From the NCBI GenBank assembly GCA_016712535.1, contig JADJQW010000002.1:520254-584253 (forward strand): a stretch of DNA of 64,000 nucleotides, read 5' to 3'. Positions 18,219 through 64,000 of the stretch are shown here, in pieces. Position numbers and translations under genes: made by a program. The number at the start of each line of letters is the position of its first letter. The stretch's first letter is position 1. The notes beneath the pieces were generated by a model that searched no databases, was not told the origin of the DNA, and saw nothing but the letters and a program-made list of their open reading frames with translations. Source of the stretch: Flavobacteriales bacterium (GTDB lineage Bacteria > Bacteroidota > Bacteroidia > Flavobacteriales_F > PHOS-HE28).

Positions 18219-19091
18219 CTATCGCGCCCGCTCCAGCGCCTTCAGGTCCTCCTCGATGAAGCCTTCCTTCTTGCCGAAGATGGCCGCATCGTCGCGCAGG
18301 TACATCAGCTCGCCGGTACCGGCATTGAACACGCGCTTGAAGCAGTGCTTGTTCTTGTGGTCGCCGATGGTGATCACCGCATCGCTCACGGTCTTGGTGC
18401 GGTCCTGGGCCTCAATGGCGGCGATCGCATCTCCGATCCGGAAGGGTGAGGTATAGACCGCCTTGATGGCCTCGGCGCCCGGCAGGCTCTTGTCCAAGTG
18501 CTCCTTGCTGAAGAGCAGTTCCGTCTCGCGCACCAGTCGGGTGCGGCTCGCATACAGGCGATCGGCGGTGGCCATGTCGATGACCTTGCCGCCCTCCACC
18601 TGCTTGAGGTAGTCCTGCAAGTGCTTCACGTAGATGGTGATCATCGCTGCGGCCTTACCATCGGCAATGGCCTTGGGATCGATGAGGATCGAGGCCAGCT
18701 CCTGCTCGGCTCCGATGCCGGTGAAGCAATTGTCGGTCTGTTGCAGGGCATCGCCTTTCTTCTGCTTCCATCCTTTCACCACCGCCATGAAGCTGCCTTC
18801 GAACTTCACGGGGTCCGTGCGCCGTGTCTTCATCAGGTAGGTCCTGTCGGCGCTGATGGGTTGCATGCCGAGATCGGCCACGGTGATGAAGTCCACTGAG
18901 GCATTGAACTTCCATTCCGCCTTCACCGCGTTCATCAACGCGCGGTTGTACGGAGAATCGCCAGCATCGAGCACCACCACCAGCGGAAGCGCCTTCGCGG
19001 CCTTCACGGCCGGAGCGGCGAAGGAGCCGTACTGCGCGAGTGCGATGAGCGGAGCGGCGGTGAGCGTGACGAGGAATGAGCGGAGGAGCAT
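18219..19091 (-). CDS. Hypothetical secreted/periplasmic protein
   Basis: Signal peptide MLLRSFLVTLTAAPLIALAQ from Met 19091. No recognised domain. GC3-rich codon usage. Confidence 0.5.
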   Translation of the reverse strand: MLLRSFLVTLTAAPLIALAQYGSFAAPAVKAAKALPLVVVLDAGDSPYNRALMNAVKAEWKFNASVDFITVADLGMQPISADRTYLMKTRRTDPVKFEGSFMAVVKGWKQKKGDALQQTDNCFTGIGAEQELASILIDPKAIADGKAAAMITIYVKHLQDYLKQVEGGKVIDMATADRLYASRTRLVRETELLFSKEHLDKSLPGAEAIKAVYTSPFRIGDAIAAIEAQDRTKTVSDAVITIGDHKNKHCFKRVFNAGTGELMYLRDDAAIFGKKEGFIEEDLKALERAR

Positions 19092-19151: not shown

Positions 19152-19529
19152 ATGAGCGAGGAGGCCAACACATCGCTGTCGAAAGGCGAGCTGGATGGCC
19201 TGCGCCCCTGGCTCGATCGCGCTGAAGTGCTCACATCGACCGTGCAGCAGCTCCGCAAGGACCTCGCGCTCGCAGAGGCGGACTTGCCGGAGCCTGGAGC
19301 GGTGGAGGGGGCCTTTGAGGAATTGCGTGCCGGAGTGCTTGCGCGACTCATGGAATTGGAGCGGGGAAGCGGGAATGCGGTGCAAACGGCCATGTACCGC
19401 GTCGACATCCCCGAGCGCCACTTGCAGCGCGCATTGGAAAGCGGAGGGCTCCACGCATTGGCCGGTGAATGCGTGCTCCGCGCGCTCCAGAAGGTATTGA
19501 CCCGCCTGCGCTTCGCGGGCCGATTCTGA
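19152..19529 (+). CDS. Small hypothetical protein (125 aa)
   Basis: ATG-initiated, GC3-rich ORF in the gap between the 18219..19091 gene and sucA. No recognisable family. Confidence 0.35.
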   Translation: MSEEANTSLSKGELDGLRPWLDRAEVLTSTVQQLRKDLALAEADLPEPGAVEGAFEELRAGVLARLMELERGSGNAVQTAMYRVDIPERHLQRALESGGLHALAGECVLRALQKVLTRLRFAGRF

Positions 19530-19629: not shown

Positions 19630-22437
19630 ATGGACAAGCTTTCCTACCTGAGCAACGTCGATAGCGCCTGGCTCGACGATCTCTACCAGAATTACCTGAA
19701 GGACCCCGCCAGCGTCGAGACCGGCTGGGCGCGCTTCTTCGAAGGATTCGAGTTCGCCCGCGCCTTGGAGGGCGGCAGCATCGAAGGAGGGGCTCCAGCA
19801 GCCCCTGCTCCCGGCGGCAATGACCGCTTCGAGAAGGAGTTCCGAGTCATCGAGCTCATCAACGCCTATCGGCAGCGGGGACACCTCTTCACCAAGACCA
19901 ATCCGGTCCGCGACCGCCGCACGTATTCGCCCACGCTCGATATCGAGCACTTCGGGCTGTCTTCCGCCGATCTCGACACCGTGTTCAGCGCCGGCAATGA
20001 GGTGGGCATCGGCCCGGCCAGGCTCCGTGACATCATCGACCTGCTCAAGCAGACCTATTGCCAGAGCGTGGGCGCCGAGTTCAAGTTCATCCGCAACCCG
20101 GAGAAGGTGCGGTGGCTGCAGCAGCGCATGGAGGGCGTGCGGAACACGCCGGATTTCACCATCGAGCAGAAGAAGGAGATCCTCGAGAAGCTCAACGAGG
20201 CCGTCGTCTTCGAGCGATTCCTGGGCAAGAAGTTCATCGGCCAGAAGCGCTTCAGCATCGAGGGCGCAGAGGCCTTGATCCCTGCGCTCGACACCGTGAT
20301 CGAGCATGGCGCCGAGCTGGGCATCACCGAGTACGTGATCGGCATGGCGCACCGCGGCCGCCTCAACGTGCTGGCCAACACCCTGCGCAAGAGCTACGAC
20401 CAGATCTTCTCCGAGTTCGAGGGCAAGGATTATGATGATGAGCTGGTGGAGGGCGACGTGAAGTACCACATGGGCTACAGCAGCGTGCTGAAGACCAATA
20501 CCGGCAAGGAGGTGCGCCTGACCTTGGCGCCGAACCCCAGCCACCTGGAGACGGTGGGCCCCATCATGCAAGGCATCTCGCGCGCCATCATCGAGCACGA
20601 CGACGATTTCGCCAAGGGCATCACCGCGCCGATCATCATCCATGGCGATGCCGCGGTAGCCGGGCAGGGCGTGGTGTATGAAGTGGTGCAGATGGCGGGC
20701 CTCAAGGCCTACGAGGTGGGCGGCACCATCCACATCGTGGTGAACAACCAGGTGGGCTTCACCACCAACTACATCGATGCGCGCACCAGCACCTATTGCA
20801 CCGATGTGGCCAAGGTGACCCAATGCCCGGTGTTCCACGTGAACGGCGATGATGCCGAGGCCGTGGCCTACACCATGAAGCTGGCCATGGATTACCGCCA
20901 GAAGTACGGCACCGATATCTGGGTGGACATCCTCTGCTACCGCAAGCACGGCCACAACGAGGGCGATGAGCCCAAGTTCACCCAGCCGCTGCTCTACAAG
21001 AAGATCCAGGAGCACCCCGATCCGCGGAAGATCTACATCGATAAGCTCAAGAGCAGCGGCGTCAACGAAGCGGAAGAGCTCGCTGCCGAGATGGAGGCCT
21101 CCTTCACCGGCATGCTGAATGCGCGCCTCGACGAAGCGAAGCAGGTGCGCGTGGGCAAGATCACCAACTTCCTCGAGGAGCGCTGGAAGGGATTCAAGCG
21201 CGCCGATGCGAAGGATTTCTTGCGCTCGCCCGAGACAGGCGTGCCGATGGAGACGCTCCAGCTGATCGGCGACAAGCTCAGCGTGCTGCACCCCGAAGGC
21301 AAGAAGTTCTTCAGCAAGCTGGAGAAGATCCTCGGCGACCGCAAGAAGATGATGGAGGCCGGCGTGATCGATTGGAGCATGGGCGAGCTGCTCGCTTACG
21401 GATCGCTGCTCCTGGAAGGCCACCCGGTGCGCATGACCGGCCAGGATGTTGAGCGCGGAACCTTCAGCCACCGCCATGCCGTGGTGAAGGTGGAGGACAG
21501 CGAGGAGGAATTCATCCACCTCAAGCACATCCGCGAGGGCCAAGCGCTGCTCCAGATCTACAATTCACTGCTGAGCGAGTACGCCGTCCTCGGCTTCGAG
21601 TTCGGCTATGCGTTGGCCATGCCCGATACGCTCACCATTTGGGAGGCGCAGTTCGGCGATTTCGTGAACGGCGCGCAGATCGTGCTGGATCAGTACCTCT
21701 GCTGCGCGGAAGAGAAATGGGGCACGCAGAACGGCGTGGTGCTCCTGTTGCCCCACGGTTATGAGGGCCAGGGCGCCGAGCACAGCAGTGCACGCATGGA
21801 GCGCTTCCTTCAGGGCTGCGCGGATGAGAACATGGTGGTCGTGAACTGCACCACGCCCGCCAACTTCTTCCATGTCCTGCGCCGCCAGTTGAAGTGGGAG
21901 TTCCGCAAGCCATTGGTGGTCTTCAGCCCCAAGAGCCTGTTGCGCCACCCGAAGTGCGTGAGCAAGCTGGAGGTCCTGACGAAGGGCTCGTTCCAGGAGC
22001 TGATCGACGATGACTCGGCCGATGCCGAGCAGGTGCGCACGGTGATCTTCACGCAGGGCAAGATCCACTACGAGCTCTCCGCCCACCGCGAAGAGAAGGG
22101 CATCGCCGGTACCGCGCTCGTGCGCATCGAGCAGCTGCATCCGCTGCCTGCCGACCAGATGCGCGCAGTGATCAAGAAGTACGCGAAGGCGGAGCGATGC
22201 CTCTGGGTGCAAGAGGAGCCGAAGAACATGGGCGCTTGGAGCCACATCGCCATGCACTTCCCCGAAATCAAGTGGGAGGTGATCGCCAGGCCCGCCAGCG
22301 GCGCCCCAGCCACCGGCAGCAGCAAGCGCAGCGCGAAGCAACAGGCCGAGATCATCGAGAAGGCGTTCGCACAGGTCGCACCCAAGCCTGCGGCAACCAA
22401 GCCGAAGAAGAGATCGCCAGCAAAGGCCAAAGCCTGA
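19630..22437 (+). CDS. sucA: 2-oxoglutarate dehydrogenase E1 component
   Basis: 935 aa; MDKLSYLSNVDSAWLDDLYQNYLKDP... and the ThDP-binding core (...RKHGHNEGDEP...). Collinear with SucA. Confidence 0.9.
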   Translation: MDKLSYLSNVDSAWLDDLYQNYLKDPASVETGWARFFEGFEFARALEGGSIEGGAPAAPAPGGNDRFEKEFRVIELINAYRQRGHLFTKTNPVRDRRTYSPTLDIEHFGLSSADLDTVFSAGNEVGIGPARLRDIIDLLKQTYCQSVGAEFKFIRNPEKVRWLQQRMEGVRNTPDFTIEQKKEILEKLNEAVVFERFLGKKFIGQKRFSIEGAEALIPALDTVIEHGAELGITEYVIGMAHRGRLNVLANTLRKSYDQIFSEFEGKDYDDELVEGDVKYHMGYSSVLKTNTGKEVRLTLAPNPSHLETVGPIMQGISRAIIEHDDDFAKGITAPIIIHGDAAVAGQGVVYEVVQMAGLKAYEVGGTIHIVVNNQVGFTTNYIDARTSTYCTDVAKVTQCPVFHVNGDDAEAVAYTMKLAMDYRQKYGTDIWVDILCYRKHGHNEGDEPKFTQPLLYKKIQEHPDPRKIYIDKLKSSGVNEAEELAAEMEASFTGMLNARLDEAKQVRVGKITNFLEERWKGFKRADAKDFLRSPETGVPMETLQLIGDKLSVLHPEGKKFFSKLEKILGDRKKMMEAGVIDWSMGELLAYGSLLLEGHPVRMTGQDVERGTFSHRHAVVKVEDSEEEFIHLKHIREGQALLQIYNSLLSEYAVLGFEFGYALAMPDTLTIWEAQFGDFVNGAQIVLDQYLCCAEEKWGTQNGVVLLLPHGYEGQGAEHSSARMERFLQGCADENMVVVNCTTPANFFHVLRRQLKWEFRKPLVVFSPKSLLRHPKCVSKLEVLTKGSFQELIDDDSADAEQVRTVIFTQGKIHYELSAHREEKGIAGTALVRIEQLHPLPADQMRAVIKKYAKAERCLWVQEEPKNMGAWSHIAMHFPEIKWEVIARPASGAPATGSSKRSAKQQAEIIEKAFAQVAPKPAATKPKKRSPAKAKA

Positions 22438-22557
22438 AAAGCCGCAAGGCCCAAGCCTCAAGCCCCAAGCATCAAGTGGCCCGAAACCGATTCGCCCGAA
22501 CCAATTGATGCTTGATACTTGGGCCTTGCGGCTTGAAGCTTCAACAACTGAAACATC

Positions 22558-28887: not shown

Positions 28888-28910
28888 TTGCGTTCAGCTA
28901 CTTTCACCCC

Positions 28911-30206
28911 ATGCCCGCCCCCAAGCTCCTCGATGCGCTTCCGCAGCTCGTGCGCGAAGGGCTCATCACGGCGGAGCAGGCCGAGCGCATCCGCGCGCGC
29001 TTCGCCAACGATTCTGCACAGGGCACCAGCCGCATGCTGCTCGTGTTCGCCATCCTCGGCAGCGTGCTGGTTGGTCTGGGCATCATGCTCATCGTGGCGC
29101 ACAACTGGGACGATTTCACCCGGCCGGTGCGCACGGTGCTCGCATTCGCGCCGGTGCTGATCGGCCAGGCGCTGGTCTGGCATGCGCTGCGCGCCAAGCC
29201 CGATGTCCGCGCGTGGCGCGAGGGCAGCGCCATCTTCCTCGCCTGCGCGCTCTTCGCCTGCGTGGCGCTCATCAGTCAGATCTACCACATCGAGGGCTCG
29301 CTGCATGGCTACCTGCTCACCTGCGCGCTGCTGATCCTGCCGCTGATCTACCTGCCCGGTTCCTTGATCGTATCGCTCGGCTACATCGCCACGGTCACCT
29401 GGCACGCGGCGGCGTACCACTGGGATGGCCCGGGCCGCATGGCTTTGCCCTGGTCCTCTTTGCTGCTGCTCGCCGCTGCCGTGCCCATGTACTTGCGCGC
29501 GGCTCGGTTGAATGGCGAGCGCATCGGTTTCTGGTGGCTCAGCCTGTTCGCGGCGTTGAGCGTGGGCCTGATCTCGCAATGGTTCTACCGCGATTGGAGC
29601 ATCGTGCATGTATTCGGCGTGCTGGGCATGGCCACGGCCTTCACGCTGGTGCCCTGGCTGCACACGGGCCGCGAGCTGCGCTCCTGGCCGTGGGCCCTCG
29701 TTGGCGGCGCGGCGGTGCTCATCACCTTCTTCGTGCTCAGCTATCGCGACGCATGGGGTTTCCGCTCGGCGGACCGTGATCGGTCCATGGTGGAAACGAG
29801 CGAGGCGATCGTGATCGCCGCAATGACGCTCATCGGCATCGTTGCTTACGTGCTGTCACTCAGGCGGCGCAGGCCATTCGAGCAGTGGCCTTACCCGGAG
29901 GCCATGGGCTTCTTCGCGCTCTGTTATGTCGCTGGCCTGCTGCAACCTTGGCTGGCGCCCTTGCTCGTGAATGCCGCCCTGCTCGCCATGGGCGTGGTCA
30001 CGGTGCGCGCGGGCATCGCGCACGATTCGCTGAAGCGCATGAACCTCGGACTGGCCATCATCGGCCTCACCGTGCTGCTGCGCTTCCTGGATACGGACAT
30101 GAGCTTCGCGCTGCGGGGATTGGCCTTCATCGCCATCGGTGGCGGCTTCTTGTACATGAACCTGCGCATGGTGCGCCAGCGCGACAAGCAGAAGCCTGAC
30201 GCATGA
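28911..30206 (+). CDS. DUF2157-type integral membrane protein (possibly fused with a DUF4401-like region)
   Basis: N-terminal soluble segment (LITAEQAERIRARF) then about 10 predicted TM helices. Sits directly upstream of, and overlaps by 4 bp with, a GDYXXLXY protein. This is the usual partner arrangement. Confidence 0.6.
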   Translation: MPAPKLLDALPQLVREGLITAEQAERIRARFANDSAQGTSRMLLVFAILGSVLVGLGIMLIVAHNWDDFTRPVRTVLAFAPVLIGQALVWHALRAKPDVRAWREGSAIFLACALFACVALISQIYHIEGSLHGYLLTCALLILPLIYLPGSLIVSLGYIATVTWHAAAYHWDGPGRMALPWSSLLLLAAAVPMYLRAARLNGERIGFWWLSLFAALSVGLISQWFYRDWSIVHVFGVLGMATAFTLVPWLHTGRELRSWPWALVGGAAVLITFFVLSYRDAWGFRSADRDRSMVETSEAIVIAAMTLIGIVAYVLSLRRRRPFEQWPYPEAMGFFALCYVAGLLQPWLAPLLVNAALLAMGVVTVRAGIAHDSLKRMNLGLAIIGLTVLLRFLDTDMSFALRGLAFIAIGGGFLYMNLRMVRQRDKQKPDA

Positions 30207-30889: not shown

Positions 30890-31640
30890 TTGATGCGCCC
30901 ACACTGGCCATCACCGGCGCGAGCATGAGTCCGATCAACGGGATCTTCATCAGCAGGCTGAAGCAGGCGCCGTTGGCCAGCACCGCGCCGAGCTGGCTGT
31001 TCACCGCGCGCGTGGTCTCGCCGATGCGCATGCGCCGCCGCTCGAACACGTAATCGAACATGCTGAAGCCATAGAAGTACGACGACACCACGAAGAGCAG
31101 GATGAAGCTGATGGGCGTGATCAAGGGCAGGAAGAACGAAGCGACCCAGATGGCCACGGTGAACGCCAGCTCGAGCACGCCGTTGCGCATGGCCACCAGC
31201 GCGCCGCGCAGGGCATCCTTCATCAACTGCCGCCAACTGAACGGGAACTGCCGGCCCGTGAGCTTCTCTTCTGCCAGCTCGCTCGCATAGGCCAGCAGCG
31301 GCGAGAGCAGCACCAGCACGATGTACTTGTTGGCCACGAAGAGCAGGTAGCCGATGGCCAGGCGGAGGATCCAGCGTACGATCACCTCGCGCGCGCCGTT
31401 CATCCAGGCTTTGAAAGCCTCCCACCAATCACCGGTGCTGGTCTGCGCCACAGGCAGCTCCAGCCACACGGCCAGTTGCGCGCTCGCTGCCTCCACCATG
31501 CCTTCCATGGCATGGAAGAACCCATAGAAGAGCGCCACCCAGAGCACGATCGGCACCAGGAACATCCAGCCCATGCCGTTGCGCAGGGTGAAGCGGAAGG
31601 CGCTGATGAAGCCGTTGAGGCCAAGGCCGAGGTCGCGCAT
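30813..31640 (-). CDS. EI24/CysZ-like multi-pass membrane protein
   Basis: About 275 aa with 4-6 hydrophobic helices. Resembles the EI24/CysZ family. Start at Met 31640. Its 3' end overlaps the 3' end of the GDYXXLXY gene by 77 bp. Confidence 0.5.
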   Translation of the reverse strand: MRDLGLGLNGFISAFRFTLRNGMGWMFLVPIVLWVALFYGFFHAMEGMVEAASAQLAVWLELPVAQTSTGDWWEAFKAWMNGAREVIVRWILRLAIGYLLFVANKYIVLVLLSPLLAYASELAEEKLTGRQFPFSWRQLMKDALRGALVAMRNGVLELAFTVAIWVASFFLPLITPISFILLFVVSSYFYGFSMFDYVFERRRMRIGETTRAVNSQLGAVLANGACFSLLMKIPLIGLMLAPVMASVGASITVLEREKQALMRNPPGGQQNPQAR

Positions 31641-31653
31641 GGGGCGAAGTAAT

Positions 31654-31773
31654 GGGTTGAAGAGGTTGAGCGGTTGAGAGTTGCGCCTGCGCGCAGGCTG
31701 GCGCCGGTTGAAGGTTGAACACCCCCCAACCTTCATCAACCCTCAACCTCTTCAACCATCAACCTCACAACCT
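31654..31773. repeat. Composite inverted-repeat element built from GGTTGAR heptads (left half) and YTCAACC heptads (right half) around a central palindrome GCCTGCGCGCAGGC
   Basis: 16-bp perfect arms GGTTGAAGAGGTTGAG (31655..31670) and CTCAACCTCTTCAACC (31742..31757). Inner imperfect arms GGTTGAAGGTTG / CAACCTTCATCAACC. At least 5 GGTTGA and at least 5 TCAACC copies. Located in the divergent intergenic region between the EI24-like and DUF5606 genes. Confidence 0.6.
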
Positions 31774-31784
31774 ACTTTCGCCCC

Positions 31785-32333
31785 ATGGATTTGAGCAAGA
31801 TCATCACCGTAGCGGGCAAGCCCGGATTGCACCGTGTCGTGGCGCAAGGCCGCCAAGCCATCATCACCGAATCGCTGGCCGATGGCAAGCGCGCGCCGGT
31901 GCCCTTGAGCGTGAAGGTGAGCAGCCTCGATGAGATCAGCATGTTCACCACCGGCGACGATGTGCTGCTGAAGGACGTGCTCGCGAAGCTGCACGAAGTG
32001 AACGGTGGAGGCGCCGCCGCTGATCCGAAGAGCGACGACAACACGCTCTGGGAAGCGCTCCTCAAGGCCCTGCCCACTGCCGACCGTTCGCGCATCTATG
32101 CCAGCGACGTGCGCAAGCTCTTCACCTGGTACGGCCAGTTATTGAAGGCCGGTGAGTTCGAGAAGAAGGAGGAGCCTGTGAAAGAGGCCGAGTCCAAAGA
32201 GGCTGCACCCGAGAAGAAGACCGTGGAGAAGGCCGTGAAGAAGAAGGCCGATGCCGCCGCGAAGGTGAAGCCGGCCAGCAGCGGCGCCCCCAAGGCAGCG
32301 GCCGTTCGCCGGGGTGGCCAGCGCGGCAGCTAG
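31785..32333 (+). CDS. DUF5606-family protein with Lys/Ala-rich basic tail
   Basis: MDLSKIITVAGKPGLHRVVAQGRQAIITESL matches the Bacteroidetes DUF5606 N-terminus. The C-terminal third is low-complexity KEAE/KKK. Confidence 0.55.
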   Translation: MDLSKIITVAGKPGLHRVVAQGRQAIITESLADGKRAPVPLSVKVSSLDEISMFTTGDDVLLKDVLAKLHEVNGGGAAADPKSDDNTLWEALLKALPTADRSRIYASDVRKLFTWYGQLLKAGEFEKKEEPVKEAESKEAAPEKKTVEKAVKKKADAAAKVKPASSGAPKAAAVRRGGQRGS

Positions 32334-40764: not shown

Positions 40765-41067
40765 TCAGCGCCGCCGCTTCTTCGATCGCAATGGCCTGCG
40801 ACTCGTATGGAAAACACTGTACACAATGGCTAGGCCATCCGTCAACTCGAACACGATGCAATACGGGAAGTCCTGGACCGGGGCGTATCGGAATCCGTTC
40901 ACCCGTTCAGGGTAGCTGCATGTCACGCGAACCAGGTCCTCAATGGCTTTGAGCACTGCTGTTTCGAAGCGCGCGCCAAGTTTCGGTTGCTCGAGCTCGT
41001 AGTGCAATGAGGCCTCCTGCCATTCCTGCCAAGCCAGGTCGCGCAGCTCAATGGCCTTCGCCTTCAT
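40765..41067 (-). CDS. Type II toxin, RelE/ParE family
   Basis: 100 aa; ...FRYAPVQDFPYCIVFELTDGLAIVYSVFHTSR matches the RelE/ParE C-terminal pattern. Start overlaps the antitoxin stop (ATGA). Confidence 0.65.
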   Translation of the reverse strand: MKAKAIELRDLAWQEWQEASLHYELEQPKLGARFETAVLKAIEDLVRVTCSYPERVNGFRYAPVQDFPYCIVFELTDGLAIVYSVFHTSRRPLRSKKRRR

Positions 41068-41285
41068 GCGCGCTTGCGCTTCAGCATGGCCTTCACCTCC
41101 TTCAGGGAGTATCCCTTGCCTTTGCCTTGCCGCCGCGCTTCTCGCCGCTCCTCGAGCATGGCCAATTGCTCCTTGGTGAATCGGAACTCGCCGGCCTCAG
41201 CCTCCAACGCCTTGCTCACCTTGGCCAGCACATGTTCATCATTGGTGGCAATGATGCGTTCGATCAGGTCGAGCTTCGTGAACAT
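41064..41285 (-). CDS. Antitoxin, putative addiction-module component (TIGR02574-like)
   Basis: 73 aa; MFTKLDLIERIIATNDEHVLAKVSKALEAEA... resembles TIGR02574-family antitoxins. Immediately upstream of the RelE/ParE toxin. Confidence 0.6.
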   Translation of the reverse strand: MFTKLDLIERIIATNDEHVLAKVSKALEAEAGEFRFTKEQLAMLEERREARRQGKGKGYSLKEVKAMLKRKRA

Positions 41286-41339
41286 GATCCCGTGTTTCGG
41301 CCAAAGCTATGCGCCGGGCATGCCCGTTGGATGCTGGTC

Positions 41340-41450
41340 ATTGGCATTCAACCCTCAGCCCTCGAACGCTGCAGCATCAGTGACGGCTGTTAACCCTCAA
41401 CCTGCCTTGTCATCCCGGGCTTGACCCGGGACAACCCTCAACACCCAACC
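41340..41450. repeat. Array of CAACCCTCARC motifs plus a 7-bp palindrome (TCCCGGG-CTTGA-CCCGGGA) in the antitoxin/murB intergenic region; shares an exact 12-mer with the 31654..31773 element
   Basis: TTCAACCCTCAGCC, TTAACCCTCAACCTG and ACAACCCTCAACACCCAACC, read directly. AACCCTCAACCT also occurs at ~31735. Confidence 0.4.
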
Positions 41451-41452
41451 GC

Positions 41453-42466: not shown

Positions 42467-42619
42467 GTCTATAGGCGGACAAGTTTACCGGAGAAAGCAC
42501 AGCCATGAGTGCAGGGTAATTGCGGCGCCGGATGCCTAGCCTATTGCGATTGCTCTTAGATTCGCTCTGCCGTGGCCAATAGCATGGTCCGAATTAGGTC
42601 TGAACAAACACGACCAGAC

Positions 42620-43588
42620 ATGCACTCGGCATTCCAGCTTTGCCTTGCGCTGCTTGCGCCCGGCTTGTGCGCACAAAACCTGGTGCCCAATCCGAGCTTC
42701 GAGATGGTGGATACATGCCCGCAGTTTCCCCTCGTGCTGGGCTACCAGCCAGGGGCGGTGCCCCAGCATTGGTACAGTTCGAGCGATACCCCGGATTATT
42801 TCAACTCTTGTGAGGATAACGATGTTGGCGGTGTACCTAACAACGTTTTCACGCACCAATTGGCTCACGATGGGGGCGCATATTCGGGAATGTGGTCATT
42901 CCTCGCGGACGACCATAGGGAGATGATTGGAGTTGAGTTATTGAGCGACCTGGTCGTCGGTGAGACCTACTACGCAAGTTTCTACGCCAACGCTGCTTTC
43001 GGCGGCAGTCAGGGAACCGGCCGCGTATGCGATAATCTCGGGTTGCTCTTTTGCACAGCCCCGTACTACTGGCTCTATGGGTCGTCCATGCCGGAATTCG
43101 GCTGTCGCAACTACGCGCACGTGTGGTCAACCGAGGTCATCAGCGATACCTCTGCGTGGGTGCTCGTGAGCGGGGCATTCGTTGCGGATTCAGCCTATCG
43201 GTACATGGTTGTTGGGAATCACTTCGACAACGCCAACACGGTTACCGATAGCCTGGGCCCGAACCCGAACGCCTATCAATTGGTTGATCAGGTCTGTGTC
43301 TCACTGAACCCTTCGCAATGCCCGTTGATCAACGGAGCGGGAGAGTTTTCCAGGACATGGATTGGTGTCCATCCGAATCCTGCGAAGGATGTATTCCAGG
43401 TCTCCTGGGAAGGGCGGGCCAACCGACTGCATGTGTTCGATATGGTCGGTCGGAGCATCTGGCAGGCCACAACACAGGGCGAGAATGGTCTTGTGGTCGA
43501 TGTTGCGCACTGGGCTCGTGGCCACTATGCAATGATTCTCGAAGGGGATAGCTGGTGCTACTCGCACAAGTTAGTTCTGGTGGAGTGA
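42620..43588 (+). CDS. Hypothetical secreted protein with a T9SS type-A C-terminal sorting domain (lower-GC gene)
   Basis: Signal peptide MHSAFQLCLALLAPGLCAQN. C-terminus IGVHPNPAKDVFQVSWEG...GHYAMILEGDSW is a T9SS CTD. Noticeably more A/T at third codon positions than neighbouring genes. Confidence 0.55.
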   Translation: MHSAFQLCLALLAPGLCAQNLVPNPSFEMVDTCPQFPLVLGYQPGAVPQHWYSSSDTPDYFNSCEDNDVGGVPNNVFTHQLAHDGGAYSGMWSFLADDHREMIGVELLSDLVVGETYYASFYANAAFGGSQGTGRVCDNLGLLFCTAPYYWLYGSSMPEFGCRNYAHVWSTEVISDTSAWVLVSGAFVADSAYRYMVVGNHFDNANTVTDSLGPNPNAYQLVDQVCVSLNPSQCPLINGAGEFSRTWIGVHPNPAKDVFQVSWEGRANRLHVFDMVGRSIWQATTQGENGLVVDVAHWARGHYAMILEGDSWCYSHKLVLVE

Positions 43589-43614
43589 CCCTTCTTCAAC
43601 AAAAACGGTAAACC

Positions 43615-45672
43615 ATGGAGAACTGGAAAACCTTCAAAAGCCTTGGCTTGGTCGTGTTCCTATTCGTCAGTGCGAAAGGCAAGGGTCAAGTATCGCAGCT
43701 GAACAATACGGTTACCGCCGTGACCGACTACATAGGCTGCGACGTGAACAGCAACCAGCCGTTGCGATTCACAACGCAGTTGAACTTTCCACATCAATGG
43801 CGAACGGATAATGCACTCCGGATGCGGCTTACACAAACGCTTACGGGCCAGTCAGTGAACGGCTAAGGAAACCGGGACCTGTCAGGGCATCTGGGAATTG
43901 GCCTGTTCACGGATCCGGATGTGAACCGGCCCTTCTCCATGCTTCACATTGATTCGGCGGGCGGGCAGGACACCGGCTACCGCCCGTGGATGAAGGTGGG
44001 CATGACGCTCACTCAATGGTCGGACCTGAGCTACTTCGGCCTGAAATCGGAGAGCAACGACGACAACCATGCGGTGATTGCTTGGAGCGATAACCAAACG
44101 GGCTTGGATGGCCCGGACCTGTTGAAATTCATCTTTTTGATGAACAACAACACAAGCGGTCCAACGGCCGCTTTGGACAATGGTTTGGAGGCGGCCCGCT
44201 TCCTGCCACACACCAGCGGGAATCAATCGTTCTTCGGTGTTGGAGATTGGTTCACGGCTGGCCTCAATCCGACGGAACGCGTCGATCTTCTTGATGGTCG
44301 CTTACGCATCCGCCAGCTTCCGGATGATTCGGAGACTGACCAGGCCTTCAAGGTGATGGTAGTGGACGACACGAACGACCCGTTGGAACGCGGTGTGGTG
44401 AAGTGGAAGAACATCAACCTAAGCGCTGATTGCGATTGGGTGGTGCAGACTGGAGACCCGCATGTGTCGAGCGTGTACGATGGGAGCAGCTGCTTGTGGG
44501 ACCGTCGGCATGGCGTGGGCATCGGCATGGATGTGCCCCGCGCCAAATTGCACGTGCATCACAACAACTATGAGTTGCTAGCTCGCATTGGTACCTGGTC
44601 TAGGACCGAGTCGGATGATTTTCAGAATGAGTTCCAGGGGGTCTTGGGCGAATGTGGTCCTATAGATCCTGACGGCTTCTTTGGCCACGCTGAAGGAGTA
44701 CAAGGACTCGCCTACAACTGCAAGACCACCATCGGTGTGCATGGCCACGGCCGTTACGACTCCCAACAACCGGGAACCGGCACCGGATTCCTGGTGGGCG
44801 TGCTCGGCGTGGCCGAGTACGATCAGCCGTGGCAGGCTTCATTCTCCGCAGGCGTGTATGGTCGATCCATAGCCCCGCAAGGCGCTGGCCAGGCATGGGC
44901 TGGTTTCTTCCAGGGCGATGTGATGATCACCGGGAACGGTTTTGTTAATGGGGCCATCCCCATCACCTCCGATGCTCAGTTCAAGACCGGCGTGGAGGAA
45001 TTGACAGGCGCCTCGGAGTTGCTATCTGCCTTGCAGCCGAAGCGCTACTCCTTCAATGACCTTGGGCAATCCGTGGTCGGTTTGCCGGATGGTGAGCAAC
45101 TCGGGTTCATCGCGCAGGAATTGGAGGAGGTGCTTCCAGATTTGGTGCATGAAACACAGCGACCGGCTGATCTGAATGATGCAGGCGATGTCGTCCAAGA
45201 AGCCATCGACTACAAAGCGGTGAACTACATCGGGCTCATCCCGGTCCTGGTTGCGGGCTTCCAGGAATTGCAAGGGCGCGTTGCGGCGCAGGAGTCGGTG
45301 ATCGCGCAGCTCCAGGAAGAACTCGCCGCCTGTTGCGCCGCCTCGAACGACGATGGCACGCGCTCAATTACGGGGAGCACGACCGATGAGGGCTCCATCA
45401 CCCCCACCCAGGAGCGCCTGCTCCGCATCGCACCCAATCCCTTCACCGACCGCACCACGCTCTTCTGCACGCTGGAGCACGCAGGCCGCATGCAGTTGCT
45501 GGCCAACAGTACCGATGGCCGCAGCTTGATGGTGCTGAGCGAGGGCCAGCGCGAGGCCGGTGAGTTCCAGTATGAATGGAGCACGGAGAAACTCGCGCCC
45601 GGCGTGTACTACATCAACCTCTTGCTCGACGGCGAGCCGGTGGTGAAGCGCGCGGTGAAAGTGGGGAAGTAA
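43615..45672 (+). pseudogene. Tail-fibre-domain / S74 intramolecular-chaperone-domain surface protein with a T9SS CTD, interrupted by a single in-frame TAA at 43864..43866
   Basis: ORF 43615..43866 (signal peptide MENWKTFKSLGLVVFLFVSAKG) and ORF 43921..45672 are in the same frame, separated only by TAA. The downstream part has no start or signal peptide of its own. It ends with an endosialidase-chaperone-like segment (LSALQPKRYSFNDLG...GFIAQELEEVLPDLV...IDYKAVNYIGLIPVLVAGFQEL) and a T9SS CTD (LRIAPNPFTDRTTL...GVYYINLLLDGE). Confidence 0.5.
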
Positions 45673-45767
45673 GGGATTGACCTAAGTGAGATTCCGGATG
45701 GCTGGGTCCATCGCGCTTCGCGCGCCCAGCCTCCGTAATGAGGCCTTCGGCGAAATGCGAGTCGAAC

Positions 45768-45799
45768 GAACGGCCCGGAGCAGCAACTCCGGGCCGTTC
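45768..45799 (+). terminator. Hairpin (11-bp stem GAACGGCCCGG/CCGGGCCGTTC) after the tail-fibre-like gene, just upstream of the GT4 start
   Basis: Read directly from the sequence. A second weaker hairpin lies at ~45700..45730. Confidence 0.4.
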
Positions 45800-45810
45800 C
45801 TTTGGCGCTC

Positions 45811-58900: not shown

Positions 58901-61900
58901 TGCTGCTGACGCTCGCGCAAGGCGGCGGAACAGCAATCGTGTACGTATATGCGCCGGCACTCATGGTAGCGGGGTCGAAGAGGTCACCGGCTACAGCACT
59001 GGGTCCTGTCCAGGCGCCACCAGGGTCAGGTGAGCCACCGAGCTGGGCGAACAGGCCGATCGGCGCATCGCTGAAGCATAGGGTGATGGAACCATCTGTG
59101 CCGGGGTCGGGTTCACTAACGACCGTCACCATCACCTGTGATTGATCATCAGGGCAAGGCGCCGTTCCGTTCACCGTGTAGGCGTATGCGCCAGCCGTCA
59201 TCGTTGCGGGGTTGAACATCCCGCCCGCCACCGGCGAGGGACCGCTCCACGTTCCACCCGCCTGCGCGCCGACGCCAAGCGCTGCGAACAACAATGCCGG
59301 CGGACTGCTGATGCAGAGCGTGATCGCCCCATCGGTGCCTGCGTTCGGCGGTGCGATCTCGGTGATGGTCACGGTGCTGCTCGCGTTCACGCACGGCGGC
59401 GGAACGGTGATCGTGTAGGTGTAGACGCCGGGGACCATCGTGGCGGGATCAAACAGTCCACCGACCACTGCGGAAGGCCCGCTCCACGTGCCGCCTGCAT
59501 CGGGTGTGCCGCCTAGTTCAGCGAAGAGGTCGATGGAAGCATCCGTTGCGCAGAGCGTCGCGCTGCCCGGTGCACCAGCATCCGGTGCGGCAACAACGGT
59601 CACCGTCACCTGTGATTGAGCATCAGGGCAAGGCGCCGTTCCGTTCACCGTGTAGGTGTATGCGCCAGCCGTCATCGTTGCGGGGTTGAACATCCCGCCC
59701 ACCACCGGCGAAGGACCGCTCCACGTTCCACCCGCCTGCGCGCCGCCGCCAAGCGCTGCGAACAACGATGCCGGCGGACTGCTGATGCAGAGCGTGATCG
59801 CCCCATCGGTGCCTGCGTTCGGCGGTGCGATCTCGGTGATGGTCACGGTGCTGCTGGCGTTCACGCATGGCGGCGGCACCGTGATCGTGTAGGTGTAGAC
59901 GCCGGGGACCATCGTGGCGGGGTCGTATTGTCCGCCGAGCACGGGAGAAGGGCCGCTCCATGTGCCGCCGAGATCCGGTGTGCCGCCCAATTCAGCGTAG
60001 AGGTCTATGGCCGCATCCGTGGCGCAAAGTGTCGCACTGCCGGGCGTGCCTGCATCCGGCGCAGCAACGACGTTCACCGTCACCGTGCTTTGGTCATTCG
60101 GGCATGGTGCCGTGCCGCTCACGGTGTAGGTGTACACACCTGCGCTCATCGTCGCCGGGTTGAACATGCCGCCGACGACAGGCGATGGTCCGCTCCATGT
60201 TCCGCCAGCCTGTGCGCCGCCACCCAGCGCTGCGAACAGCGATGCCGCCGGGCTGCTGATGCAGAGCGTGATCGCGCCATCGGTGCCTGCGTTGGGCGGC
60301 GCGATCTCGGTGATGGTCACGGTGCTGCTGGCGTTCACGCATGGCGGCGGCACCGCGATCGTGTAGGTGTACACCCCGGGGTTCATCGTGGCAGGGTCAT
60401 ACACGCCGCCTACTACGGGTGATGGCCCGCTCCACGCACCGCCTGCGTCGGGTGTTCCGCCCAATTCACTGAAGAGCAAGAGTGAAGCATCGATCGCGCA
60501 GAGCGTAGCGCTGCCCGGAGTCCCTGCATTCGGATTCGTCGCCACGCTCACATCAACTGTTGCGGAAACCGAGGGGCATGGGGCAGTTCCGTTGACCGTG
60601 TATGAGTACAAACCGACTGCATCCACACCGGGCGTGAAGCTTCCGGTGGAGGCGCCTCCTCCGGGCGCAGTCCAGCTTCCACCGAGGTCAGGCGTGCCAT
60701 TCAGTCCTGTGATCAGTGCTGTGGCCGGGCTCGAAGAGCAGAGCGTGAGGCCGCCATTGATGCCCGCATCGGGCATGGTGTTCACTGTGACTGTGACGAG
60801 CGCGATGTCAGCTGGACAGGGAGTTGCGCCATTGACCGCATAGGAGTAAACGCCTGATGCATCGATCCCAGGGGTGAAGGTGCCCGAATGCGCGGCTGCA
60901 TTGAAGCTCCATGCGCCACCAACTTGCGGTGCACCATTCAACAAGCCGAACAAGTCGAATGCCGCATCGATTTCACATACCGTGATTCCTCCATCGCCAC
61001 CTGCATCGGGCGGTGCGTTGATCGTCACCGTCACCGTAGATGCTGCGTCAATGCACGGCGCAGCGCCGGCGACCGTGTAGGTGTACACGCCCGCGAGCAT
61101 CGTCGCAGGATCGATCATGCCGCCGACGACCGGCGAAGGACCGCTCCATGTTCCACCGGCATCCGGCGTTCCGCCGAGCTGCGCGAAGAGACTTGCGGCA
61201 GCATCACTCGAGCAGAGCGTGATCGCGCCATCGGTCCCGGGATCAGGCGGTGCGTTGATCGTCACCGTCACCGTTGCTTGCTCATCGGGGCAAGGCGCTG
61301 TTCCGGTCACGGTGTAGGTGTACACGCCCGCGAGCATCGTCGCGGGATCAATCATGCCGCCGACGACCGCAGAAGGACCGCTCCATGCTCCACCGGCATC
61401 CGGCGTTCCGCCGAGCTGCGCGAAGAGACTTGCGGCAGCATCACTCGAGCAGAGCGTGATCGCGCCATCGGTTCCGGGATCCGGCGGTGCGTTGATCGTC
61501 ACCGTCACCGTTGCTTGCTCATCGGGGCAAGGCGCTGTTCCGGTCACGGTGTAGGTGTACACGCCCGCGAGCATCGTCGCGGGATCGATCATGCCGCCGA
61601 CGACCGGCGAAGGACCGCTCCATGTTCCACCGGCATCCGGCGTTCCGCCGAGCTGCGCGAAGAGACTTGCGGCAGCATCACTCGAGCAGAGCGTGATCGC
61701 GCCATCGGTCCCGGGATCAGGCGGTGCGTTGATCGTCACCGTCACCGTTGCTTGCTCATCGGGGCAAGGCGCTGTTCCGGTCACGGTGTAGGTGTACACG
61801 CCCGCGAGCATCGTCGCAGGATCGATCATGCCGCCGACCACTGCACTTGGACCGCTCCATGTTCCACCGGCATCCGGCGTTCCGCCGAGCTGCGCAAAGA

Positions 61901-64000
61901 GTGAAGCAGGAGCATCGCTCGAGCAGAGCGTGATTGCGCCATCGGTCCCGGGATCGGGCGGTGCGTTGATCGTCACCGTCACCGTTGCTTGCTCGTCGGG
62001 GCAAGGCGCTGTGCCTGTCACGGTGTAGGTGTACACGCCCGCGAGCATCGTCGCGGGATCGATCATGCCGCCGACGACCGGCGAAGGACCGCTCCATGCT
62101 CCACCGGCATCCGGCGTTCCGCCGAGCTGCGCGAAGAGTGAAGCAGGAGCGTCGCTCGAGCAGAGCGTGATCGCGCCATCGGTCCCGGGATCAGGCGGTG
62201 CGTTGATCGTCACCGTCACCGTTGCTTGCTCATCGGGGCAAGGCGCTGTGCCTGTCACGGTGTAGGTGTACACGCCCGCGAGCATCGTCGCGGGATCGAT
62301 CATGCCGCCGACGACCGGCGAAGGACCGCTCCATGCTCCACCGGCATCCGGCGTTCCGCCGAGCTGCGCGAAGAGTGAAGCAGGAGCGTCGCTCGAGCAG
62401 AGCGTGATCGCGCCATCGGTCCCGGGATCAGGCGGTGCGTTGATCGTCACCGTCACCGTTGCTTGCTCATCGGGGCAAGGCGCTGTGCCTGTCACGGTGT
62501 AGGTGTACACGCCCGCGAGCATCGTCGCGGGATCGATCATGCCGCCGACGACCGGCGAAGGACCGCTCCATGCTCCACCGGCATCCGGCGTTCCGCCGAG
62601 CTGCGCGAAGAGTGAAGCAGGAGCATCGCTCGAGCAGAGCGTGATCGCGCCATCGGTCCCGGGATCGGGCGGTGCGTTGATCGTCACCGTCACCGTTGCT
62701 TGCTCGTCGGGGCAAGGCGCTGTGCCTGTCACGGTGTAGGTGTACACGCCCGCGAGCATCGTCGCGGGATCGATCATGCCGCCGACGACCGGCGAAGGAC
62801 CGCCCCATGTTCCACCGGCATCCGGCGTTCCGCCGAGCTGCGCGAAGAGTGAAGCAGGAGCATCGCTCGAGCAGAGCGTGATCGCGCCATCGGTCCCGGG
62901 ATCGGGCGGTGCGTTGATCGTCACCGTCACCGTCGCGCTCTCGTCAGGGCAGGGCGCTGTGCCTGTCACGGTGTAGGTGTACACGCCCGCGAGCATCGTC
63001 GCGGGATCGATCATGCCGCCGACGACCGGCGAAGGACCGCTCCATGTTCCACCGGCATCCGGCGTTCCGCCGAGCTGCGCGAAGAGTGAAGCAGGAGCGT
63101 CGCTCGAGCAGAGCGTGATCGCGCCATCGGTCCCGGGATCAGGCGGTGCGTTGATCGTCACCGTCACCGTTGCTTGCTCATCGGGGCAAGGCGCTGTGCC
63201 TGTCACGGTGTAGGTGTACACGCCCGCGAGCATCGTCGCGGGATCGATCATGCCGCCGACGACCGGCGAAGGACCGCTCCATGCTCCACCGGCATCCGGC
63301 GTTCCGCCGAGCTGCGCGAAGAGTGAAACAGCTGGATCTGATGAACACAGCGTGATAGCACCGCTCGTGCCGGCATTCGGGGCCTGATTAATGGCGACGG
63401 TCAGTGTGGCAATGTCATTCGGGCATGGGGCCGTGCCAATGACGGTGTAGGTGTAAACACCTGGCGGATCAACTGCTGGGTCGAGGCCGCCGCTCATCGC
63501 ACCGCCTCCAGGACCTGTCCATGAACCAGTTCCATCGGGCCCACCGCCTAACTGCGCAACCATCACTACCGGCGCGCTGGTCGTGCATAGCGTAATGCTC
63601 GCGTCCAGTCCGGCGTTGGGAGGTGCGCTCTCCGAAACAGCAACGGTAGCATCAGCGTTCGGGCATGGCGCCGTTCCGTTCACCGTGTAGGTGTACACGC
63701 CAGGGTTCATCGTGGCCGGGTTGTAGTTGCCTCCAATCACCGGCGATGGCCCGGTCCAGGTGCCGCCGGGCTGCGCGTTTCCACCGAGCAGAAAGAACAT
63801 CGATTGCGCAGCATCGGTGCTGCAAACAGCGAGGCTCGTCGGCGTGCCGGCATCGGGCAACGGATATACGGTCACATTCACTGTACTGCTCACCGGCGCG
63901 CCGCACGCTCCACCGCCACCCACCGTGTAGGTGTAGATGCCCGGTGGGTCGACGCCCGGGACGAACATGTTGGAATGCGCTCCGCCGCCGGGCATCGTCC
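55971..64000 (-). CDS. Giant SprB-like cell-surface adhesin, C-terminal part (>2,670 aa in window): tandem ~79-aa Ig-like repeats, SprB-type repeats, a PKD-like domain and a type-B T9SS / gliding-motility-associated C-terminal domain. The N-terminus lies beyond the window.
   Basis: Single open frame across 8 kb. C-terminus VPNAVTPNGDGENDTFMPIF...MIFDRWGLLL...VYVWKMKF is the type-B T9SS CTD. Upstream are SprB-repeat-like units (CNGVCDGTASVSATGGNGAYDYAWSG..., CPGACDGSITVV...GQYVVLMQDANGC). Before that are at least 30 units of the pattern DAG.DG.ITLC...LF..LGG.PD.GG.W.GP...GG..DPA....G.YTYTV.G..PC.D..ATVTV. Confidence 0.8.
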   Translation of the reverse strand, partial: TMPGGGAHSNMFVPGVDPPGIYTYTVGGGGACGAPVSSTVNVTVYPLPDAGTPTSLAVCSTDAAQSMFFLLGGNAQPGGTWTGPSPVIGGNYNPATMNPGVYTYTVNGTAPCPNADATVAVSESAPPNAGLDASITLCTTSAPVVMVAQLGGGPDGTGSWTGPGGGAMSGGLDPAVDPPGVYTYTVIGTAPCPNDIATLTVAINQAPNAGTSGAITLCSSDPAVSLFAQLGGTPDAGGAWSGPSPVVGGMIDPATMLAGVYTYTVTGTAPCPDEQATVTVTINAPPDPGTDGAITLCSSDAPASLFAQLGGTPDAGGTWSGPSPVVGGMIDPATMLAGVYTYTVTGTAPCPDESATVTVTINAPPDPGTDGAITLCSSDAPASLFAQLGGTPDAGGTWGGPSPVVGGMIDPATMLAGVYTYTVTGTAPCPDEQATVTVTINAPPDPGTDGAITLCSSDAPASLFAQLGGTPDAGGAWSGPSPVVGGMIDPATMLAGVYTYTVTGTAPCPDEQATVTVTINAPPDPGTDGAITLCSSDAPASLFAQLGGTPDAGGAWSGPSPVVGGMIDPATMLAGVYTYTVTGTAPCPDEQATVTVTINAPPDPGTDGAITLCSSDAPASLFAQLGGTPDAGGAWSGPSPVVGGMIDPATMLAGVYTYTVTGTAPCPDEQATVTVTINAPPDPGTDGAITLCSSDAPASLFAQLGGTPDAGGTWSGPSAVVGGMIDPATMLAGVYTYTVTGTAPCPDEQATVTVTINAPPDPGTDGAITLCSSDAAASLFAQLGGTPDAGGTWSGPSPVVGGMIDPATMLAGVYTYTVTGTAPCPDEQATVTVTINAPPDPGTDGAITLCSSDAAASLFAQLGGTPDAGGAWSGPSAVVGGMIDPATMLAGVYTYTVTGTAPCPDEQATVTVTINAPPDPGTDGAITLCSSDAAASLFAQLGGTPDAGGTWSGPSPVVGGMIDPATMLAGVYTYTVAGAAPCIDAASTVTVTINAPPDAGGDGGITVCEIDAAFDLFGLLNGAPQVGGAWSFNAAAHSGTFTPGIDASGVYSYAVNGATPCPADIALVTVTVNTMPDAGINGGLTLCSSSPATALITGLNGTPDLGGSWTAPGGGASTGSFTPGVDAVGLYSYTVNGTAPCPSVSATVDVSVATNPNAGTPGSATLCAIDASLLLFSELGGTPDAGGAWSGPSPVVGGVYDPATMNPGVYTYTIAVPPPCVNASSTVTITEIAPPNAGTDGAITLCISSPAASLFAALGGGAQAGGTWSGPSPVVGGMFNPATMSAGVYTYTVSGTAPCPNDQSTVTVNVVAAPDAGTPGSATLCATDAAIDLYAELGGTPDLGGTWSGPSPVLGGQYDPATMVPGVYTYTITVPPPCVNASSTVTITEIAPPNAGTDGAITLCISSPPASLFAALGGGAQAGGTWSGPSPVVGGMFNPATMTAGAYTYTVNGTAPCPDAQSQVTVTVVAAPDAGAPGSATLCATDASIDLFAELGGTPDAGGTWSGPSAVVGGLFDPATMVPGVYTYTITVPPPCVNASSTVTITEIAPPNAGTDGAITLCISSPPALLFAALGVGAQAGGTWSGPSPVAGGMFNPATMTAGAYAYTVNGTAPCPDDQSQVMVTVVSEPDPGTDGSITLCFSDAPIGLFAQLGGSPDPGGAWTGPSAVAGDLFDPATMSAGAYTYTIAVPPPCASVSSTVVVNVIQPPDAGIDGALTLCITSPAVALINSLGGTPDAGGTWSGPSPVIGGAFNPATMSAGAYTYTVNGTTPCPADAATATLTVVTEPDPGGPGFLTICGNAAPDDLFSYLEGSPDQGGLWTTPAGTAFNGLFDPAVMASGVYTYTIAVPPPCASVSSTVTVDVVSPPDAGLDCAITLCFSNAPQDLFAILGGTPEPGGSWTTSGGSSYSGTFDPATDAPGVFSYTVQGAAPCPADAASVTVAVTQLPNAGADDILNLCVVGDAVDLYPLLGAADPGGTWTGPNGTSNGIFTPGASAPGDYSYSVNGVAPCPSASAVITVNVLSNADAGIDGASTLCGDNAPIDLFDLLGGSPDAGGSWFAPDGSPATGGFDPSVQAAGTYTYILFVPAPCENDTSIVAMSIVAPVDPGIDGSATLCSDDAPVALFNLLNGSPDAGGEWTAPNGTPSENNFDPATDAPGSYVYTVQATAPCLDQSATVTMAVNPLPDAGTNGAITLCPEAAAIELFSLLGGTPMAGGTWTGPGGQPSNGIFDPATSAQGVYTYTVLGLLPCPNAYASSTATVFLIAPPNAGPDAVSCTLEYTLNATGSWASGSWSGPAGMTFSDPGSPTSTVTAIAGGPYTLTWSVLSTDGCATQDEVTIIFTDAIVPVVALTDAICNGVCDGTASVSATGGNGAYDYAWSGSIAGNSPSATGICAGEYTVTVLDENGCFTIVPFSIDEPEPLVIDTILATDETCPGACDGSITVVDPEGALFSLNGGAFGSGSVFTGLCPGQYVVLMQDANGCSASGMATIARPAPVVADFDFAPETLYVGSSTADFTNTSSPNAVSFSWDFGGVGSSTATSPSFTFPGGLGDTYMVCLTAYDANGCADTHCEPVEVLDALVVWVPNAVTPNGDGENDTFMPIFNLPQLVKDYEFMIFDRWGLLLTRSEQVHAPWGGDYQGEVVQEDVYVWKMKFKNKLTNELTERVGHVTVLK
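61081..63213. repeat. Nine near-identical 237-bp (79-aa) tandem coding repeats inside the giant adhesin gene
   Basis: Same-phase ORFs of identical length at 61081, 61318, 61555, 61792, 62029, 62266, 62503, 62740 and 62977 (period exactly 237 bp). They differ by only 0-4 codons. Flanking units (60874.., 63214..) are progressively more divergent. Confidence 0.8.

Follow-up and report, generated by a model that had tools for sequence, protein, structure and literature searches.

The stretch of Flavobacteriales DNA analyzed here (64 kb, 63% GC, hereafter the window) contains a 144-bp spacer (31641–31784) between two divergently transcribed genes, one of the EI24/CysZ family and the other assigned to DUF5606/DUF6852 (Table 1). 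Coordinates are positions within the window, and L-numbers (L003, L010, L096 and so on) denote the stretches of related genomes with which it was compared. Together with the two start codons, the spacer makes up a composite quasi-palindrome (31638–31787) that combines a 16-bp perfect inverted repeat with five GGTTG and six CAACC units. An earlier reading from the sequence alone (the first-pass annotation) had recognized a divergent promoter region with a 16-bp perfect inverted repeat, a second, imperfect pair and a 14-bp palindrome, for which the flanking coding sequence does not account, and all of this was borne out. The perfect repeat consists of GGTTGAAGAGGTTGAG (31655–31670) and CTCAACCTCTTCAACC (31742–31757), 100% complementary over 16 nt; other inverted pairs in the spacer are imperfect (21 nt at 81% and 14 nt at 93%), and the outermost perfect pair, 11 nt long (CATGGGGCGAA and TTCGCCCCATG, 31638–31648 and 31777–31787) and overlooked in the first-pass annotation, has both start codons inside it. 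The GGTTG units start at 31655, 31664, 31672, 31706, and 31713 (spacing 7–9 nt), and the CAACC units at 31727, 31737, 31744, 31753, 31760, and 31768 (spacing 7–10 nt). Tandem Repeats Finder (TRF) detected periods of 7, 8, and 16 at 31655–31680 and 31723–31772, the arrays being imperfect. The spacer had also been described as almost entirely made of heptads: heptad units are indeed present, but they cover little over half of it and are spaced 7–10 nt apart, hence 'heptad' is approximate.

Table 1. Features of the EI24–DUF5606 spacer and the second motif site (positions within the window)
Feature	Position	Strand	Remarks
EI24/CysZ-family gene	start 31640 (CAT 31638–31640)	minus	
DUF5606/DUF6852 gene	start 31785	plus	Pfam
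Left outer arm: EI24/CysZ start codon (31640–31638), CCCC (31644–31641), putative −7-like box TTACTTCG (31652–31645)	31638–31652	minus	
Left array, GGTTGAA GA GGTTGAG C GGTTGAG AGTTG	31655–31683	plus	YTCAACC on the EI24 coding strand
GC-only perfect palindrome GCCTGCGCGCAGGC, 14 bp	31685–31698		window-specific; not in L010 or L013 (spacer alignment)
Central hairpin, GGTTGAAGGTTGAAC ... CAACCTTCATCAACC	31706–31741		left arm TGAAGGTTGAAC is the sole conserved block within the spacer
Right array, five CAACC units (31737, 31744, 31753, 31760, 31768)	31737–31772	plus	DUF5606 coding strand
Right outer arm: putative DUF5606 −7 box TACTTTCG (31773–31780), CCCC (31781–31784), ATG (31785–31787)	31773–31787	plus	
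Second motif site, GGTTGGGTGTTGAGGGTTG, AGGTTGAGGGTTAA, GCTGAGGGTTGAATG	41340–41452	minus (murB coding strand)	directly after the murB stop codon

The palindrome is real and highly non-random. Assembly artefact is excluded because the same spacer sequence occurs, identical, in two other, independent assemblies. Seven of the 23 exact GGTTGAR sites of the whole window fall within the 103 bp from 31655 to 31757; shuffled 64-kb sequences held 11.0 ± 3.1 sites against the 23 real ones, and by our own arithmetic ~0.04 would be expected per 103 bp. The right array lies within a G-free run of 62 nt on the plus strand (31718–31779), twice as long as the next longest such run in the window. Folded as a single strand of 150 nt, the quasi-palindrome is very stable on both strands (RNA, −80.3 kcal/mol for the plus and −86.0 kcal/mol for the minus strand; DNA, −49.0 kcal/mol), with z of about −9 and none of 200 shuffles equally stable; the predicted shape is a long stem with interruptions, inside which lie two small hairpins, and its stability ranked fifth among 15,129 segments of 110 nt (~380 kb from this and related genomes). 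Perfect 14-bp palindromes of the GCCTGCGCGCAGGC type, on the other hand, are estimated to occur several times by chance per 64 kb at 63% GC, and this one alone is not significant.

The first-pass annotation had missed that the outer arms correspond to two promoters with their start codons, the symmetry being that of an inverted copy of a whole promoter module. The flavobacterial −7 box, TAnnTTTG, occupies positions −12 to −5 (Guerin et al., 2021; PMC9723704), and, judged by sequence, each outer arm carries a Bacteroidota-type −7 box, followed by CCCC and then the adjacent gene's start codon. The left outer arm is invariant across the window, L010, L013, and L005 in the spacer alignment. In more than 15 related genomes, the DUF5606 orthologue has the canonical TAAGTTTG at this position, so that a TAnnTTTG-like box near the predicted start is conserved among orthologues, as for a Bacteroidota sigma-A promoter. 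The box-CCCC-ATG order recurs ahead of a third gene, DUF2157 (TACTTTCACCCCATG, 28899–28913), and TACTTTCG boxes were found ahead of other genes too. With the box at −12 to −5, transcription would start at the A of each ATG, which would probably make both mRNAs leaderless and leave the spacer untranscribed. Scans for sigma-70 promoters and intrinsic terminators returned nothing in the spacer, and a position-weight analysis of 112 predicted promoters, a set uninformative in that most are of DUF5606 orthologues, returned no −33 element and no positioned CAACC. For the 62-nt G-free, C-rich tract a Rho-loading role was weighed, but the tract would not be transcribed from the predicted start sites. 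We also noted that −7 boxes in this lineage often end in TTCG rather than TTTG (28899–28913, 31638–31652, 31773–31787, and many further loci), and that several of them are then followed by CCCC-ATG.

Comparison with related genomes points to the origin of the symmetry. In the closest species representative (JADIYA010000001.1, Flavobacteriales bacterium AalE_18-Q3-R2-46_BAT3C.189) the DUF5606 protein is 96% identical in amino acids and the DNA is ~89% identical to the window where it can be aligned; the values for L010 are likewise 96% (DUF5606, amino acids) and ~89% (nucleotides). The spacers of L010 and of L013, L005, and L006 are ~143–147 nt long and can be aligned end to end with that of the window. 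Two parts do not vary in this alignment, the end with the EI24 promoter and, at the center, the block TGAAGGTTGAAC; elsewhere identity is only ~50–60%, and the left array has homologous but diverged counterparts (GGGTTGAAGAGATTGAGGGTTG in L013 and GGGTGGAGAGGTGAGTGTTG in L010). The spacer of the window is a mosaic. From approximately −55 to +12 relative to DUF5606 it is 94% identical to L096/L097 and 42–56% identical to L010, L013, and L003, whereas to the left of about −55 the relationship is reversed and the window resembles L010, L013, and L003. L096/L097 carry the same right array and box (CAACCCTCAACCTCCTCAACCATCAACCTCACAACCTACTTTCGCCCCATG), nearly identical, plus three further direct CAACCTC units, and upstream of DUF5606 they have neither an EI24 gene nor a GGTTGA arm; because it is present there alone, the right array is independent of the partner arm. 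When the EI24 side of L013 was reverse-complemented and aligned with the right side of the window, 41 of 52 columns agreed over the stretch from array to ATG, with a local score of 46 and a z of 9.4 (none of 300 shuffles as good). No self-similarity of this kind was found in genomes with the TAAGTTTG promoter (allele A). On this alignment, we identify the right-hand module as an inverted paralogue of the EI24-side promoter module: as in template switching, the derived segment matches a nearby ancestral one in reverse complement and is not found in outgroups. Because the EI24-side module is present in all genus members examined, and allele B (CAACC/TACTTTCG) only in the window and L096/L097, parsimony over ~8 genomes makes an inverted duplication, which placed a copy of the EI24 promoter module on the DUF5606 side, the most likely origin of the palindrome.

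The same alignments bear on an earlier suggestion, that the spacer holds a small non-autonomous mobile element, either a miniature inverted-repeat transposable element (MITE) or a repetitive extragenic palindromic (REP)-like insertion. The terminal inverted symmetry would suit such an element, as would the small REP-like hairpins elsewhere in these genomes (for example at 41408–41431 of the window), and an intergenic position, a palindromic sequence and a very stable fold are all shared with REP and MITE sequences. However, the orthologous spacers in L010, L013, and L005 are homologous, of the same length and alignable throughout, so there is no empty site and no insertion, and no target duplication was seen. 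Furthermore, the would-be terminal repeats are the promoters and start codons, and the sequence is single-copy, neither the window nor 1.4 Mb of relatives having another; neither multiple copies nor a presence/absence polymorphism with an empty site was found. We therefore consider a mobile element very improbable. Several other spacer arrangements exist: the spacer is ~70 nt long in L019 and ~213 nt, with different direct repeats, in L007/L011, and L003 (7860–10000) and L102 (19080–21236) have genes for type IX secretion system (T9SS) cargo (DUF5122 / Por_Secre_tail) as insertions between EI24 and DUF5606. Beside the inserted gene of L003 stands a second copy of the EI24 5′ end and of the entire spacer, and EI24 there has a new start. 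Because of these arrangements, the EI24–DUF5606 spacer is a rearrangement hot spot and not the landing site of a discrete element.

We then consider the units themselves, whose recurrence was counted in the window and in 1.4 Mb of relatives. Recurrence was confirmed for the 12-mer AACCCTCAACCT, for which the first-pass annotation had proposed a search: within the window it is found at 31.6 kb and at 41.3 kb only (allowing up to two mismatches, nine matches versus 2.4 expected), and in the 1.4 Mb of relatives it occurs in three independent spacers. The motif after murB is GGTTGAGGGTTG. It is found in the same place in L010, L005, L014, and L016, as (GGTTGTC)n in L048, and is missing in more distant relatives. 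In L074, L075, and L077 the gene upstream of DUF5606 has the motif after its stop codon, and L071 has it in both orientations. An orientation rule holds for these sites, in that the G-rich strand is the non-coding strand just upstream of starts and the coding strand just after stops. The units are thus arranged head to tail at ~7 nt in at least three copies, albeit in imperfect arrays; they are intergenic and found at several loci of the lineage; and they change rapidly in sequence or copy number among relatives, in the EI24–DUF5606 as well as the murB spacers. By analogy with known kin, we would class them as a lineage-specific heptameric simple-sequence repeat.

Pure heptad arrays were also noted in relatives: L040 has at least 17 copies of (TGAAAGC) after a stop codon (20413–20552), L044 has (GGCTGGA)7 (18403–18470), and L048 has (GACAACC)n downstream of murB (19297–19345). 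At 41286–41452 of the window, two copies of GGTTGAGGGTTG after murB flank a REP-like hairpin, GTCATCCCGGGCTTGACCCGGGAC (41408–41431); L010 (19150–19230) has a different hairpin, CGTCATTGCGAGGCCGTGCGAAGCAA, between the same two GGTTGAGGGTTG copies, and in L005 and L016 there is no hairpin. Tiny hairpin elements of this sort may land preferentially in heptad arrays.

Taking these results together, we lean towards the view that the spacer consists of one promoter in two mirror-image copies, each with a heptameric simple repeat as its upstream DNA, the palindrome having formed by inverted duplication. The spacer would hold two back-to-back Bacteroidota sigma-A-type promoters, each composed, in this order, of a YTCAACC array on the coding strand of its gene, a −7 box (TTACTTCG or TACTTTCG), CCCC, and ATG. 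The right module, an inverted paralogue of the EI24 side, would have taken the place of the TAAGTTTG promoter, which serves DUF5606 in sister species. A template switch during replication, with the small conserved hairpin at the center as its seed, would be the simplest way to the 150-nt quasi-palindrome, and slippage of the polymerase in G-free DNA upstream of the promoters would maintain and reshape the heptads. A likely consequence is that near-identical promoters drive both genes; the palindrome itself would be a by-product, with at most a modulatory effect at the level of DNA (cruciform extrusion, supercoiling).

Several points weigh against this interpretation. The hairpin at TGAAGGTTGAAC is invariant in four lineages amid ~50–60% identity, which hints at a specific function that simple repeats do not explain. 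The direction of the duplication is drawn by parsimony from few genomes; while the paralogy can be read directly from the alignment, it is the template switch and its direction that we infer. The leaderless mRNAs and the untranscribed spacer are likewise deduced from the position of the boxes. The near-identical assemblies L001/L002, L096/L097, and L005/L006/L013 showed no copy-number polymorphism, which leaves active slippage a presumption. The spacing of the units is 7–10 nt and not strictly 7. Lastly, the GGTTG core after murB is kept from 76% to 100% MurB identity, which could reflect selection.

The first of these points also favors an operator or activator array, in which a protein would bind the GGTTGA/TCAACC units, or the TGAAGGTTGAAC-N-CAACC..TTCAAC inverted pair, and co-regulate both genes. 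The window, L010, L013, and L003 share the 13 predicted base pairs of the central hairpin, covariation being nearly absent, and the conserved inverted pair lies midway between the promoters, ~50–60 bp from each −7 box, so the TGAAGGTTGAAC hairpin could be a binding site; in addition, the sequence CTCAACCTCTTCAACC is common to both promoters. Yet in orthologous promoters only TGAAGGTTGAAC and its hairpin are conserved, the arrays outside this block being poorly conserved between species with ~89% nucleotide identity and missing from the EI24–DUF5606 spacers of L019, L007, and L011. The central 12-mer is confined to orthologous spacers and occurs nowhere else in the 1.4 Mb of related DNA, which leaves no regulon signal, and no regulator gene is adjacent. 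Unit spacing of 7–10 bp is off the helical phase, the same motif follows stop codons elsewhere, and the right array occurs without the left one in L096/L097. These points weaken the case for an operator array, to which we give a low probability. A CRP/FNR-type box (TTGAT-N4-ATCAA) was rejected on reading the sequence. The direct repeats of L007 (9830–9960) and L011 (8870–9000), two of ~55 nt in each, every one with a GCGACGCATGCGTCGC-type palindrome (exact in L011), are a better operator candidate than the heptads.

Another possibility is that selection acts on the structure of the hairpin, which might serve as a cruciform or, given transcription, as an insulator or bidirectional terminator, heptads being the way in which the stems grow. 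This explanation draws on the extreme stability of the fold and on a second such element within the 64 kb, made of different heptads. Between the sucA stop and the sucB start (22437–22545) lies a hairpin with about six 7-nt units per arm (AAGCCNC / GNGGCTT; −55.6 kcal/mol, z −7.7), and heptad hairpins occupy this site in three lineages, one of them unrelated in sequence. The orthologous spacer of L102 (9895–9978) forms a hairpin of related CAAGACW heptads (z 8.3 in comparison with the window); that of L099 (9893–9973), like that of L100, has an unrelated GGCGAAT/ATTCRCC hairpin (z 1.2 against the window), despite the first 120 nt of sucB in L099/L100 being identical to the window at 114 of 120 positions. 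In L101 and L103–105 the sucA–sucB spacer is ~32 nt long without a hairpin. At the EI24–DUF5606 spacer, however, the sister species have the small central hairpin only and lack the long stem, the right array of L096/L097 has no partner, the predicted start sites leave the stem untranscribed, and a terminator between divergent genes is unnecessary. We regard selection for the structure as a possible but unlikely explanation. We would propose only tentatively that there is a distinct class of intergenic heptad hairpins, with arms of about five 7-nt units, whose architecture is kept at each spacer while the heptad sequence is replaced. If true, this would mean selection on structure together with concerted evolution between the arms via slippage and template switching, and the palindrome at 31.6 kb would be a member of the class that captured two promoters. 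The sucA–sucB hairpin, with heptads that are not the same from one sister genome to another, is more intriguing than the 31.6-kb palindrome itself.

The first-pass annotation had also likened the arrays to iterons. Beyond the iterated short motifs there is nothing to suggest the iterons of a replication origin: the units measure 7–9 bp as against ~17–22 bp, the setting is one of chromosomal housekeeping genes with no rep or dnaA gene nearby, and the spacer has no DnaA box, a GC content of 60%, no AT-rich stretch and no skew switch. We give this reading next to no credence. A search of the window against Rfam 15 gave no match at the gathering score (best sub-threshold match, 23.9 bits versus a gathering score of 90), and the sub-threshold matches were rejected as hairpin lookalikes of the microRNA type only.

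Two further searches concerned the distribution of the locus. A scan of metagenomes with the conserved left anchor GCGCATGGGGCGAAGTAA, meant to yield a population series, returned only five unrelated chance matches, and an exact-protein look-up of EI24 returned the source contig as the sole match. Elsewhere in the window, a segment of ~3.3 kb (42494–45810) has no counterpart in the 20.5 kb compared of the closest genome, L010, which aligns on both sides, and may be an insertion. Tandem repeats of 474 nt (three copies, 85% matches) and 237 nt (9.8 copies, 95%) at 59118–63331 lie inside a minus-strand open reading frame of more than 1666 aa; Pfam returned no match for its 79-aa repeat unit or for two small genes at 40765–41285.

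An inverted-duplication promoter pair and heptamer repeats are both already known kinds of sequence. In comparison with Bacteroidota sigma-A promoters, the outer arms match in sequence and position, and orthologues carry the canonical TAAGTTTG; they differ in that TTCG often replaces TTTG in this lineage, and in a box-to-ATG distance that predicts leaderless mRNAs, which make up only 5.5% in F. psychrophilum (PMC9723704). It is established that inverted repeats can arise by replication template switching (PMC8794818, PMC5941160, PMC7202029), in promoters as well (PMC13100816). As in template-switch quasipalindromes, the reverse complement of a nearby segment appears here to replace ancestral sequence, with a short pre-existing hairpin at the center; unlike in those, the copied unit would be a whole promoter module of ~50 nt, and the event is deduced from few genomes rather than from tree reconstruction. 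On this interpretation, the locus would illustrate, cleanly and in nature, how a promoter gives way to the inverted copy of the divergent promoter next to it, and would show that template switching is able to rewire expression and to generate long palindromes within the regulatory DNA of bacteria. For annotation, symmetry alone should not make such palindromes MITEs, iterons, or RNAs.

Heptamers are the commonest long simple repeats in prokaryotes and have been noted in some Flavobacteria (PMC4679880, which cites Mrazek 2007 on long simple sequence repeats); TAACTGA repeats, for instance, have been described in a set that includes some Flavobacteria (MacGregor, 2015; PMC4679880). The GGGNATC heptamer repeats of Xanthomonas and Nostoc follow the same orientation rule, occupy the same gene gaps in relatives with variable length and sequence, and have no known function (Rehm et al., 2015; PMC4692102). 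The units described here differ from the known heptamer repeats in sequence (GGTTGAR/YTCAACC) and in their irregular spacing of 7–10 nt. They have G runs of 2 only, whereas a G-quadruplex repeat of the GGGNATC type needs at least four tracts of at least three G; this candidate was rejected, and a stable G-quadruplex is unlikely. The position between divergent genes, found here, is under-represented in Xanthomonas. Shared with the heptamers of Xanthomonas, Nostoc, and Flavobacteria are the unit of ~7 nt, the intergenic position, the orientation rule, the variability between relatives, and inverted arrays able to form stem-loops. That one orientation rule is common to Xanthomonas, Nostoc, and this lineage argues for a general cause, and the present arrays would extend heptameric simple repeats to an abundant uncultured Flavobacteriales lineage of wastewater.

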